Origin: a bacterium
GTDB taxonomy: Bacteria > UBA10199 > 2-02-FULL-50-16 > JAJFLM01
NCBI GenBank assembly: GCA_965216315.1
Contig: CBDCFN010000016.1
Span: 320,001-384,000 of the forward strand
Direction: 5' to 3'
DNA length: 64,000 bases
Shown here one piece after another: positions 30,001 to 33,000 of this stretch (position 1 is the first letter of the stretch; every line of letters begins with the position of its first letter). Made by a program: the position numbers.

Positions 30001-33000
30001 AGGGAATGTATGGGGGTGCATCGACTCGATTCAAATAAAGTTCAACGTTCGCGCGCCGCGGATCCAGCGGCCGATTCCGCGACAAGCGGCGCAGGAACGG
30101 CCAAGGGCCCCGCGGAAGTATTGCCGTTTCCTTTTACGGAGATGCTGACGGTCGCGGGTTTTCGGGTCCCGACCCAATGGCAAGCGCACCCACAATTAGC
30201 GCAACTCCGCCAGAATGCGGAACATACCGCCGGTTTGGACCTTTCCTCGTTTCCACCGGAGATTCAGGAGGATATCCGCACGATGCTCGAATTTGCCGAG
30301 TCCCCGACCTTTAAGCGGCAGATGCAGGCCCTGTTGGATATTGACGTCCCTGACAACGATTCGGCGTAGCGTCAGAACGTTCGAATCGCCCCAAAATGAG
30401 GTCTCCAGGCCCCATTTTGAAACCCTCTGGCGCATTGCGTTACCGAAAAGCTGTTTGCCAATTTTCGAAAAAACTCAGTATTGACAATGACTTAGAAGTG
30501 TTGTGGAAGGTTGGGAACAGTTGCCCGCTTTGGCACAAATACTGCATCTTCATCCTGTACGAAGCGAAGGAGTCAAAATCGGATGAGTTCAAAAGCTGTG
30601 AAAAAAGTTGCCAAAAAGAAGAGTCCCCCCGCCAAGCAGAAGAAAGACGAGCGCCGTCATTCGGAGACACGGGATCGTCTGATCAAGCAGTATCTTCCCT
30701 ATGCGGCGTCGATCGCGGGACGCGTGATGCAGATGTTATCGTCGGCAGTCGATTACGACGATGTCATGTGTTATGCGCGTTTAGGCCTGCTTGAAGCCGC
30801 CGAACGCTTTGATCCCAGCATGAACGTCGATTTTAAGACCTTTGCGTACTACCGTATCAAGGGCGCGATCTATGACGGGCTCCGCAAGAGCGGTTGGGTC
30901 CCCCGCGCTCTTTACGCCAAGATCAAGTTTGAGCAGGCGTCCAATAATTATCTTGAGTTTGTTTCTTCCAAGCGTTCGCTCGACGGCGATGAAGACCAAA
31001 AGGCCGCCGAGGTCTATGACACAGTTAACTCCCTCGCTTCAATTTACGTGATCTCGATCGATGCCTCGGAAGAGCCGATGGAGATTGAAGATACCAATGC
31101 CAAGAGCTCCGAGCAGCTCGCCCAGTTTCAACAGCTCAAGGGGCACATGAAGGCCTCGATTGAACTCCTCCCGGCCAAGGAACGCAAGCTGATCAAAATG
31201 TATTATTTCCAGAACAAGACCCTCGAAGAGGCGGGAGCTGAATTAGGTCTGTCGAAGAGTTGGACCTCGCGACTCCACGCCCGGGCCCTCGAAATGCTTT
31301 TCAAGAAGGTGAATGCCCGCATTCATCACTCGCACGGGGCGCAAGCGCCTGCGCAGCCGGACGAAGACACCCCTGATCTGCCGCAATTGCAGCAAGGAGG
31401 CACGCGGTGAGCATCGAAGCGAAAGTCGCTCAAACCGCGACCAAGGTCGCGACCGAAGTTGCCAAGCAAGGGGGCCAAAATCCGCTTCAAACCGGCGAAT
31501 CTCAGTTTATGAACGTGCTGCAGCAGCACGAAATCAAGATGGAAGCGTCCAGCAATGACATTATGTCGATGTTGGGGCAAGATGCCAGCCTCCATCCGGC
31601 CGATAACGCTGTTTCGGCCGATGGCCTCCAAATCCAGATTTCCGACGTCCAAAAGTTGGAATCTGTCGAATCATCCAACAAACTCGGCAATATGTTTGAA
31701 AACCTCAATCGTGATGGGCTCAATATGGAGCGCATTCAGGAGATGGTGATGTCTGGTGAGAAGATGAGTAATCGCGAATTGATGGCAATGCAGGCGATGA
31801 TTCACCAGTCAGCCCTTGAAATCCAGATTGGGGTTCAGGCGATGGACGCCGGGAAGTCCTCGATCCAAACGCTGGTACAAAGGACAACGCAATAGTATAA
31901 CTACAATATGAATGAAGAATTGGCCACCTCAGGCAAGGTCATGGCGGCCTTAGCCATCTTGGAGGGGGAAAGGGATCCGGCGGCACTGTTTCGCTTTGCG
32001 CCGACCGAGCTGGCCGACTCGCTGACCCATTATGCCGGGGTGCTGCGGAGCCGTTTTGCGAGGGGCAAGGCGCAGGAACTGGCAGCGTTGCTCAAGTCGT
32101 GGTCCGAACAATCGCCCGCCTTACCCATCCATGAGATCCATCCGGGCTGGCTCCTTGAAGTCGTCAAAGAAGAGAGTCCGCGCGTCATTGGACTCATCTG
32201 TCGCTACCTTCCCGGTCATCATGTTCGTTTTGTCATCGAGAATCTTCCGCGCGAAATCCGCGACAAACTCCCGACCTTGAATGAAAGTTTCGGTCTCCCG
32301 GTCGAATTGATTAATGAGGTGAAGTCCTTTTTGGGGTCTCGCTTCTTTCAAGGGACGCCGCCCAATGCCGGGGAACGTTTTTCCGTGCGTCATATCCCAT
32401 GGATGAGTGCCCGGGACATTCGTTGCGTGGTGCGGGAGCTGGGCTATAGCGAGTTACGCAAGGCCTTTGTCGGCATGGATGTGCAGGCGATCCAGGCCTT
32501 TCTGACCCGCTTTCCGCTCGAGGAGGCCAAGGAATTGCGGGCCCACATCGAGAAGGGTCCGGCGATTTCTGACGCGGAGCACAAGCGCGCGCAGGCCCAC
32601 ATTGTCGGGATGAATTTAGATGTGAGTTGTGCGGCCGACCTCCCCTATGAAATTGGACTTTCCGCCCTGGCGGAAGCGGTGGCCGCCGATGAGACCGGCT
32701 GGATTGAAGGCGTGGTCGTGCGGCTGGACCCGGCCGAGGGCTACAGCCTCCGTCGTTATGTCAAAGAGGCGCAGGCCAGTGGGCGTTCCGACTCATGCGA
32801 GCGGCGTCAGACGGAATTGTTGGGCTTGATCCGTGAATTGGCCGATAATGGCAAAATTGCCCAGTATTGGGGGAGTCGAGCGGACGACGAAATCACTCAG
32901 AGCGGAAAACCGACTTAAATGGTATAATAAGGGCCGAAATTATGACTGAAATCATTAAACGCGATGATCCCGAAGGACAGCTCAAAGTGAAGGAAACGGA

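Follow-up and report, generated by a model that had tools for sequence, protein, structure and literature searches.

Needle-less, Myxococcus-type type III secretion under a putative three-tier sigma-54/sigma-28 switch

The closest described systems come from plant pathogens, flagella and intracellular bacteria. In Pseudomonas syringae, the activators HrpR and HrpS act from an upstream site, with IHF, on the sigma-54 promoter of hrpL, an alternative sigma factor in charge of the regulon of a secretion system of type III (T3SS), according to the available part of PMC5263251. In Vibrio cholerae, FlrA and sigma-54 drive class II flagellar genes including fliA and the export apparatus, and sigma-28 runs a later tier (PMC6504787, available extracts). 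Late regulons of sigma-54 with CtcC and of sigma-28 are described in Chlamydia trachomatis, where sigma-54 has been proposed to act at effector genes (excerpts of PMC7482065 and PMC12282069). The needle-less T3SS* of Myxococcus xanthus has a sorting platform and an export apparatus without a secretin in its cluster (PMC12075869, PMC3459982), and the word 'sigma' has no match in the accessible text of these two papers. MXAN_2437 is not mentioned in the literature searched or in the accessible supplements of PMC11980068, and the searchable papers hold no description of the transcription of a needle-less, Myxococcus-type T3SS.

The locus described here resembles both HrpRS-hrpL and FlrA-fliA and is neither of them; it appears to combine elements of the wiring known from flagella and from plant pathogens in a manner not described before. 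It shares with hrpL an activator, sigma-54, IHF, an alternative sigma factor and T3SS genes, a logic recognisable here at the sequence level. However, HrpL is an ECF sigma factor, whereas here a FliA/WhiG-like sigma heads the apparatus operon itself, and HrpRS is described in the same extract as a heterohexamer under HrpV and HrpG, whereas here there is a single FHA activator candidate beside a Ser/Thr kinase. As in Vibrio flagella, from which the sigma-54 to sigma-28 step is already known, sigma-54 is predicted to transcribe the export-apparatus and sigma-28 genes and sigma-28 a later tier. The FlrA-type site (GTCA-N6-TGAC in the accessible part of PMC4641369) is unlike the enhancer found here, and is seen at 3 of 116 sigma-54 promoters of the genome, none of them in the cluster. 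Flagellin and FlgM were sought in the host genome (98.3% complete) and not found; flagellin genes occur in 10 of 73 relatives. Several of these 10 carry a further FliA-like gene, and their flagellar promoters lack the enhancer. Chlamydia likewise has both sigmas and a T3SS in a flagellum-less bacterium, but its fliA is under sigma-66, CtcC has no DNA-binding domain, the confirmed regulons are tiny and there is no cascade, as given in the excerpts available. The locus probably encodes a switch of three tiers that controls a needle-less T3SS of the Myxococcus type.

The window (the whole stretch of DNA analysed, 64,000 nt) contains a secretion cluster with sorting-platform and export genes and without a secretin, as in Myxococcus T3SS*; secretins are encoded elsewhere in the genome. 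It is this cluster gene content by which the T3SS is assigned as needle-less and Myxococcus-type. The host phylum is uncultured and mostly flagellum-less. The first cistron of the export operon is a sigma-28 (FliA/WhiG-like) sigma factor gene (30583-31410, + strand) with Pfam sigma70 regions 2 and 4. Its product falls under the FliA/WhiG cut-offs, yet TIGR02479 (the best NCBIfam match, 133.1 bits against a cut-off of 189.6) and PRK06986 (109.6 bits against 201) are its best-matching families. An orthologue is present in 41 of 41 genomes, and it is the sole FliA-like protein among the five sigma-70 proteins of the genome. The remaining operon (31407-40514, + strand) encodes FliG-like, SctL, SctN, SctO, SctP, FliM/FliN-like, FliO, SctR, SctS and SctT proteins, with no internal sigma-54 or sigma-28 site.

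A sigma-54 -24/-12 promoter (TTGGCACAAATACTGCA, 30530-30546, + strand, 18.0 bits) lies 36 nt 5' of the ATG at 30583. It has GG at -24 and GC at -12 at the fixed spacing, the genome encodes rpoN, and GG-N10-GC is kept at 53 of 55 non-redundant orthologue loci, with a score of at least 12 bits at 44 of them; the promoter is almost certainly real. An earlier note on this DNA had placed a conserved site 35 nt before the gene in 9 of 13 genomes, so that the conservation proves stronger than stated. An IHF-like bending site with two mismatches to the IHF consensus is found at 30482-30494 (+ strand). Similar sites are located 5-50 nt before 53 of the 116 sigma-54 promoters of this genome, versus 7 at 150-195 nt, and before 27 of 52 orthologue promoters, versus 5 at the greater distance; five HU/IHF-family genes are present in the genome.

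The same note had put this promoter inside the T3SS operon as that of the sigma-28 gene, which holds except that it heads the entire export-apparatus operon and not the sigma gene alone. The promoter might then serve the apparatus, with the sigma gene as a passenger also reached by sigma-70 read-through and a sigma-28 tier only partly dependent on sigma-54. The sigma gene does overlap, by 4 nt, the gene that follows and stands first in a row with about 14 apparatus genes behind it. A terminator was looked for from the upstream gene to the promoter and not found, so that read-through is possible. At one orthologous locus (L032), E2, the enhancer described below, and the promoter, at 21 and 17 bits respectively, lie 3' of the sigma gene, between it and the following gene; an 11-N assembly gap lies directly upstream of the sigma gene there and could hide a promoter. 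In 53 of 55 loci, however, it is the sigma gene that the promoter precedes, and we consider the passenger arrangement, which is compatible with a three-tier switch, rather unlikely.

The putative enhancer, termed E2, is a palindrome of the form TGGGG-N8-CCCCA, here TGAGGTCTCCAGGCCCCA (30397-30414), centred some 124 nt upstream of the -24/-12 box; a matrix whose training set excluded the host genome and its closest relative gives it 19.9 bits. De novo motif discovery recovered E2 in 53 of 54 promoters of non-redundant orthologues, with a likelihood of 271 compared with 32-42 in three shuffles. Its spacing across orthologues has a period of about 11 nt, and helical phasing is not seen among the 24 sites of the host genome (P about 0.2-0.4). 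At a threshold of at least 12 bits, the orthologue-trained matrix finds E2 at 20 of 116 sigma-54 promoters, 1 of 216 sigma-28 promoters and 10 of 521 other regions, and at 19 of 116 sigma-54 promoters when retrained without the host genome. A strict composite of E2, gap and sigma-54 site is present in 51 of 73 genomes (none with the reversed control), and E2 with a sigma-54 site also lies directly 3' of sctT in 6 relatives; the relatives are not independent genomes, so P values overstate. The palindrome is conserved and sits in the range given for upstream activator sites (about 80-150 nt, in the accessible part of PMC7910581), with the IHF-like site between it and the promoter. E2 is thus very probably the enhancer of the sigma-28 gene's sigma-54 promoter; it is previously undescribed, and both it and the promoter are class-wide. 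In relatives with flagella, only 1 of 21 sigma-54 promoters of the flagellar regions has E2, and that one belongs to a non-flagellar gene. A further E2 site (27292-27309, 19.2 bits) precedes a 183-aa gene at 27385 that has no sigma-54 promoter, an arrangement found at 4 of 16 loci. Reading E2 as a 21-nt tandem CCCCA-N3-TGGGG had weak support at best: another site at a distance of 19-23 nt is present in 15 of 67 loci of the sigma gene and in 1 of 33 loci of the operator.

Which activator drives the sigma-28 gene had been left open, and a supported candidate is the FHA-domain activator encoded at 52422-53819 (- strand). It consists of an FHA domain, an AAA+ domain with a GAFTGA-like loop (GSFTG) and a Fis-type HTH, with a kinase gene adjacent, and so matches the architecture of FHA enhancer-binding proteins. 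Such proteins, MXAN_4899 for example, were reportedly described in M. xanthus by Jelsbak et al. in 2005 as FHA-AAA+-HTH proteins near Ser/Thr kinase genes; we know of no binding site or T3SS link for them. One orthologue of the activator is present in 71 of 73 genomes, and in 18 of 18 relatives with both genes on one contig it lies 12-43 kb from the sigma gene in convergent orientation (in the other 19 of 37 the two are on separate contigs). Among 120 homologues the recognition helix DRKH-[IL]-RNLL is near-invariant, as are the FHA pocket motifs GK, SRxH and STNG; the canonical pocket has G-R where this activator has G-K. The adjoining Hanks-type Ser/Thr kinase (53839-56496, - strand), the proposed input, carries PEGA repeats at its C-terminus and, around residue 394, a weak hydrophobic segment; its gene lies next to that of the activator in 39 of 40 relatives.

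Two E2 sites, 57088-57111 (20.0 bits) and 57072-57095 (12.3 bits), form a proposed autorepression operator (57072-57136, - strand) that overlaps a sigma-70-like promoter (-10 at 57108-57113, -35 at 57131-57136, - strand) of an operon of a small gene, the kinase and the activator. E2 is found within 350 nt before the kinase at 7 of 40 loci; the interval from yggT to the kinase holds unrecognised genes, so the search was extended to the end of yggT. Between these two genes E2 is present in 25 of 32 relatives and below 12 bits in the other 7 (8 of 40 loci, without yggT or the kinase in range, were dropped), compared with 1 of 210 matched null windows and 3.4% of random windows. A sigma-54 promoter follows the operator site in only 1 of 33 cases. 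The site overlaps a -10-like hexamer in 17 of 33, versus 0 of 67 at sigma-gene enhancers, with overlap lacking at the other 16 under the rule used. The position of E2 before the kinase/FHA-activator operon, often over a sigma-70 -10 box, points to the FHA activator as a self-repressing reader, and we consider it quite likely that it reads E2; whether the kinase gates the activator is an even call.

Several other activators were considered as readers of E2. These include x00769 (in 2 of 73 genomes), x00267 (19 of 73) and x01427 (22 of 73), as well as x00607, present in 0 of 8 members of a family that retains E2, and the FleQ-like x00605, not found in a single-contig genome (G062) where E2 is kept; all drop out. 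E2 might instead be read by another class-wide protein, most plausibly the receiver-type x00606 (C16:70174-71616), the kinase/FHA operon being one repressed target. It has orthologues in 5 of 5 genomes tested and in G003, a conserved helix GMDRSNFKK of similar class, and an adjoining phosphorelay partner. However, its own operon lacks E2 (at best 3.6 bits upstream and 9.2 bits in 7.7 kb), it is unlinked to the secretion cluster, and it has no receiver domain in G062 and G063, making this reading improbable.

Both predicted tiers are represented downstream of the export operon. Sigma-28-type promoters of 21.7 bits each lie at 40552-40579 (+ strand), before a 717-aa gene (40590-42743), and at 42887-42914 (+ strand), before a 491-aa gene (42938-44413). 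E2 at 44491-44508 (22.3 bits) with a sigma-54 promoter at 44600-44616 precedes a 460-aa gene (44685-46067), and E2 at 46124-46141 (19.0 bits) with a sigma-54 promoter at 46258-46274 precedes a 611-aa gene (46297-48132), all on the + strand; the latter promoter probably also serves the following genes, up to 52364. Four family-less putative secretion substrates without a transmembrane segment and with a common C-terminal coiled-coil hairpin domain are encoded at 42938-50038 (+ strand), followed at 50175-52364 (+ strand) by two SycD/LcrH-like TPR chaperone genes, under the family cut-off, that flank one family-less gene. The substrate proteins have no Pfam, NCBIfam or PDB sequence family and no Foldseek match at E<=0.001. 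The 44685 and 46297 proteins (g00874 and g00875), previously noted as translocator-like members of the sigma-54 regulon, do have sigma-54 sites, but their maximum 19-residue hydropathies (0.64 and 1.42) leave them without a hydrophobic segment of the YopB/YopD/IpaB type, and only a generic coiled-coil hairpin is seen. In fold comparison the helical hairpin matches IpaB 74-224 with Z 11.8 and an rmsd of 2.0 over 106, and moesin, chemoreceptors and other proteins match it equally well. The 46297 protein has an Atlas score of 0.86 to a chlamydial effector family and to LcrV/EspA-type clusters, a lead only, and the 44685 protein has no usable Atlas match.

Across the genome (2670 genes by our own calls, 1553 upstream regions scored), a sigma-54 matrix at a threshold of at least 12 bits finds 116 regions, compared with 3-6 in five dinucleotide shuffles; the large regulon reported before (124 of 1460, none shuffled) is thus upheld with adjusted counts. 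Sigma-28-type promoters are found in 237 regions versus 5-8 in shuffles, and CAAC-N16-CGAT, the sigma-28 word, is the top spaced word, with GGCA-N6-TTGC as the second family rather than TGGCA-N6-TTGC on top as claimed. The sigma-28 consensus has a GCCGATAA-type -10, and promoters with a GCCGATAA-type -10 are present in the genome with the -35 box altered to CAAC; they are assigned to the sigma factor described here because of this -10 box and because it is the sole FliA-like one of the five. The two sets do under-overlap, by 6 of 116 against 17.7 expected (P=4e-4) and not by two as noted previously. Pfam matches at E<=0.001 are lacking in 74 of 114 scanned sigma-54 targets; two short targets were left out of the scan, and of these 76 only 43 look exported or are at least 1000 aa, against the 89 family-less exported or giant targets claimed. 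All ten kinase-type activator loci (eight whole fusions, one split into two genes and one with a degenerate activator domain) have a sigma-54 site in intergenic DNA at a distance of 128-920 nt, bearing out the pairing noted earlier; the background within 1100 nt is 298 of 2291 genes, and 39 of 99 among genes of at least 900 aa.

The tandem TTATCA-N3-TGATAA site, previously proposed as the enhancer at the sigma-28 gene, is real elsewhere in the genome but absent from 30400-30583, and indeed from the window, which has one unit with two mismatches inside sctV at 19915. The unit is fixed, with 42 copies and gaps between units of 2-3 nt (16 and 6), and 19 of 21 clusters are followed by a sigma-54 site at 46-101 nt (null 11.8%). 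At 17 of 17 loci, two of them from the host genome, the tandem site lies 57-75 nt before a sigma-54 site (at least 12 bits at 12 of them). It is present in 11 of 73 genomes, and no promoter carries both it and E2, so the sigma-54 set comprises several sub-regulons with different activators, and most of its genes lie outside the secretion cascade. Signal-peptide-like N-termini, called by a hydrophobicity rule on our own start calls, are seen in 4 of 20 E2 targets versus 17 of 19 tandem-site targets (P=2e-5), and the tandem site is a separate arm of 19 promoters, mostly of signal-peptide proteins. A second FHA activator may read this arm, a tentative suggestion. As its readers, x00769, x00267 and x01091 were rejected because their distributions do not match. 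The co-occurrence of x01427 (9 of 10 genomes versus 3 of 62, G003 having a longer homologue) is confounded by clade, longer homologues with a similar helix being present in genomes without the motif, and none of 16 loci has a tandem site upstream of an x01427 orthologue, so autoregulation lends this pairing no support. The half-site resembles that of Fur, and the genome has two Fur genes, yet iron boxes close to sigma-54 promoters by chance are very improbable: a Fur box has the 7-1-7 geometry TGATAA-N3-TTATCA, unlike this unit and its gaps, the clusters are strongly placed before sigma-54 sites, and no TonB-receptor or iron-uptake family is among the targets. Although the sigma-54 regulon and the tandem site both exist, one regulon with this enhancer above the sigma-28 gene is hardly tenable given the absence, the separation from E2 and the restricted distribution against a class-wide promoter and E2, and is refuted at the sequence level, barring one activator that binds both motifs.

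From the observed sites, their positions, conservation and co-occurrence, and the gene content, we infer the following steps of binding, transcription and phosphorylation for the three-tier switch. The FHA-AAA+-HTH activator would bind TGGGG-N8-CCCCA some 90-170 nt upstream of sigma-54 promoters and, at E2 and with bending by IHF, open the promoter at 30530 for the sigma-28-family gene and the export-apparatus operon. The same activator would fire about 20 other promoters, mostly of non-signal-peptide proteins and including two cluster substrate genes, as an early sigma-54 tier. The sigma-28 factor would then transcribe about 230 genes with CAAC-N16-CGAT promoters, including two more cluster substrate genes, as a late tier. 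The activator would repress itself by occupying E2 at its own operon, where the site lies over the sigma-70 promoter, and the neighbouring Ser/Thr kinase would probably gate it via the FHA domain. The tandem TTATCA arm, with its 19 promoters of Sec-exported proteins, would stand apart, perhaps read by the second FHA activator.

No description of such a circuit was found in the literature searched (titles and abstract openings, without subscription papers or bioRxiv supplements). The analysis offers a concrete circuit with phylum-wide conservation, comprising a promoter, an enhancer, a candidate activator with its self-repression site, a candidate kinase and two timed target tiers, which is testable without culturing the organism. 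For each genome, E2 yields some 20 candidates for early substrates of secretion, and it gives an FHA-type activator a DNA site as a candidate pairing. A more speculative scenario is that the Ser/Thr kinase, sitting in the membrane, responds to a cue from outside (contact with host or prey, for instance) and through the FHA activator fires a sigma-54 to sigma-28 programme that builds and loads the needle-less T3SS. This would be a phylum-wide switch of an early-branching injectisome gated by a eukaryote-like kinase, in which the flagellar-style sigma tiers were kept and the master activator swapped, and which may also govern the predation T3SS* of Myxococcus.

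The source genome (2.96 Mb, 98.3% complete; x00001-x02670 are our own gene calls, with approximate starts) encodes one rpoN and 17 clear sigma-54 activators. Its type III secretion cluster (19083-52364) contains SctV, FHA/TPR proteins, SctD- and SctJ-like genes and a FliA/WhiG-like sigma-28-family gene (30583-31410, forward strand; the sigma gene), followed by FliG-like, SctL, SctN, SctO, SctP, FliM/N-like, FliO, SctR, SctS and SctT genes, and the remainder consists of family-less genes and two SycD-like chaperones. A 51-aa mini-ORF lies at 39244-39399, 3' of sctR. Neither flagellin nor FlgM was found in a search of the genome, and its two secretin matches are both outside the cluster.

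An orthologue of the sigma gene is present in each of 41 genomes, and in the window a -24/-12 site (30530-30546) is positioned 36 nt upstream of the gene. Seven of 77 orthologous loci were left out (six at contig edges, one without a hit) and redundancy was then removed; GG-N10-GC precedes the sigma gene in 53 of the 55 remaining loci, 44 scoring at least 12 bits, which bears out the sigma-54 promoter proposed in the earlier note. This promoter serves the entire export operon. At locus L032 of one relative the promoter is found 3' of the sigma gene, which there has an assembly gap on its 5' side. Since, in addition, no terminator was found between the preceding gene and the promoter at 30530, the dependence of the sigma gene on this promoter may not be strict; the proposed cascade from sigma-54 to sigma-28 stands in outline. 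At L059, L062, L067 and L076 the sigma gene has, directly upstream and in divergent orientation, an additional sigma-54 activator of the receiver type that is itself preceded by a sigma-54 promoter.

Iteration from a generic seed gave a sigma-54 matrix that identifies, at 12 bits or above, 116 of 1553 upstream regions (3-6 in shuffles); the earlier note counted 124 of 1460. Of 193 sites genome-wide, a further 61 fall within called genes, and a handful of the assigned targets (gyrA, a DEAD helicase and an integrase) are probably either false positives or divergent partners. A second matrix, CAAC-N16-CGAT (sigma-28), is found in 237 regions, and the two sets share six regions against 17.7 expected, not the two given before. 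All ten kinase-type activator loci have a sigma-54 site within 920 nt, where the earlier note had given a promoter within two genes; for six other activators the nearest such site is 6-14 kb away. The glnB-amtB genes (C16:245682-249334 on the contig, sigma-54 site at 247624) adjoin a NifA-like GAF activator present in only two of 73 genomes.

De novo motif searching upstream of the orthologous promoters revealed a palindrome, TGGGG-N8-CCCCA (E2), in 53 of 54 non-redundant loci, with a likelihood of 271 against 32-42 in shuffles, these loci being kin and not independent. Its centre is 71-170 nt from the promoter with a periodicity of about 11 nt; no helical phasing was seen among the E2 sites of the source genome itself. 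The sigma gene copy (30397-30414) overlaps the left coordinate of the region marked in the earlier note and stands in place of the tandem TTATCA-N3-TGATAA enhancer assigned there, which is absent from the window. With a matrix trained on the orthologues, 20 of 116 sigma-54 promoters reach 12 bits, as do 1 of 216 sigma-28 promoters and, among other regions, 10 of 521; 19 sigma-54 promoters are recovered after retraining without the source genome and its closest relative. Of 73 genomes, 51 contain the strict E2-sigma-54 composite and none the control pattern; IHF-like sites are over-represented in the interval 5-50 nt before sigma-54 promoters. Among the E2 targets are the genes at 44685 and 46297 in the cluster, and only four of the 20 look Sec-exported; in six relatives the gene directly following sctT has both E2 and a sigma-54 site in front of it. 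The gene at 27385 is preceded by a strong E2 (27292-27309) without a sigma-54 promoter, an arrangement found at 4 of 16 loci.

From sequence comparison we infer that the candidate reader of E2 is the FHA-AAA+-HTH activator encoded at 52422-53819 (reverse strand). A single orthologue is present in 71 of 73 genomes, its recognition helix and FHA pocket being almost invariant, and the gene lies convergent to the sigma gene at 12-43 kb in all 18 relatives with both on one contig (in 19 others they are split across contigs); a Ser/Thr kinase gene (53839-56496, reverse strand) adjoins it in 39 of 40. In 25 of 32 relatives, against 1 of 210 for a matched null, E2 also lies between yggT and the kinase gene, and a sigma-54 promoter accompanies it there at only 1 of 33 loci. 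At 17 of the 33 it overlies a hexamer resembling a -10 box, and 15 of the 17 also have a -35 beginning with TT; no such overlap is seen at the 67 sigma gene enhancers. The arrangement would fit self-repression by the activator, as in the NtrC pattern, where an activator represses its own sigma-70 promoter.

It is possible that E2 is read instead by x00606, a receiver-type activator. The main rival, the nearly class-wide FleQ-like x00605, whose helix resembles that of FleQ, was not found in the single-contig genome G062, which has 11 activators and retains E2; it is further disfavoured because E2 occurs at just 1 of 21 sigma-54 promoters in the flagellar regions of seven flagellated relatives, that one before a non-flagellar gene. 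The distributions of x00607, x00769, x00267 and x01427 do not fit. No x00605 orthologue was found in G062 or G063, in both of which x00606 is without a receiver domain. By eye, sigma-54 promoters in flagellar regions of seven relatives (L204-L223) seem to have common GGAAA-N3-TTTCC or CGGCAA-like upstream words.

The tandem TTATCA site shares no promoter with the E2 set. Of its 21 clusters, 20 repeat with a period of 17-18 nt and 19 are followed at 46-101 nt by a sigma-54 site, compared with 11.8% of random intergenic positions. Eleven of 73 genomes contain it and none contains the reversed control; it precedes the best sigma-54 match in those by about 57-75 nt, and its CA-N3-TG core is like that of NtrC/NorR-type sites. 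Seventeen of 19 targets start signal-peptide-like, and no iron-uptake families are among them; the one target conserved across families is a small family-less gene (C16:116922, 125 aa; also at L079, L081 and L084). By distribution the best-fitting reader would be x01427, a second FHA activator, a fit confounded by clade. A GGGACT-N4-AGTCCC palindrome over a TTGACA hexamer precedes x01427 (C16:985720-985745) and is not conserved at orthologues. A third enhancer-like palindrome, GTCYCA-N3-TGARAC, lies about 50 or 95 nt upstream of 12 sigma-54 promoters (for example C16:137668, 1054972, 1213204 and 2138277), several preceding toxin-antitoxin or mobile-type genes (ORF6N, HicA, BrnT, IS200), and at C16:1295085, 1297824 and 1303799, where three family-less genes have sigma-54 promoters close to one another, each promoter has a TGTATCG-N3-CGATACA-like palindrome 60-61 nt upstream.

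Four genes at 42938-50038 encode putative secretion substrates with a common C-terminal hairpin domain that has 89 relatives in a representative library. None of the four proteins has a hydrophobic segment and their structural matches are generic coiled coils only, and the translocator-like character suggested previously for the genes at 44685 and 46297 is not upheld. Two of the genes (42938-44413 and 44685-46067) are 65% identical paralogues, the former with a sigma-28 promoter and the latter with E2 and a sigma-54 site.

A plausible scenario is that the kinase would act on the FHA activator, which would read the E2/IHF/sigma-54 promoters, themselves observed at the sequence level, and so switch on the sigma gene, the export operon and early substrates, with sigma-28 then serving some 230 later genes; the split of the paralogues between sigma-28 and sigma-54 fits such timed tiers. 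In the available text of PMC5263251, HrpRS, sigma-54 and IHF lead to hrpL and thence to the T3SS, and in that of PMC6504787 Vibrio fliA is in class II; the circuit works like both but belongs to neither. Chlamydia differs, having both sigmas without a cascade as far as the accessible portions of PMC12282069 and PMC7482065 go. Term searches matched no sigma factors in the main text of the Myxococcus T3SS* papers (PMC12075869, PMC3459982) and no fliA in the searchable part of a broad sigma-54 survey (PMC12316311). No description of a sigma-54/E2/sigma-28 circuit was found in a literature search that most subscription papers fell outside. The regulatory circuit is judged real and phylum-wide, and it places known parts in a new arrangement.
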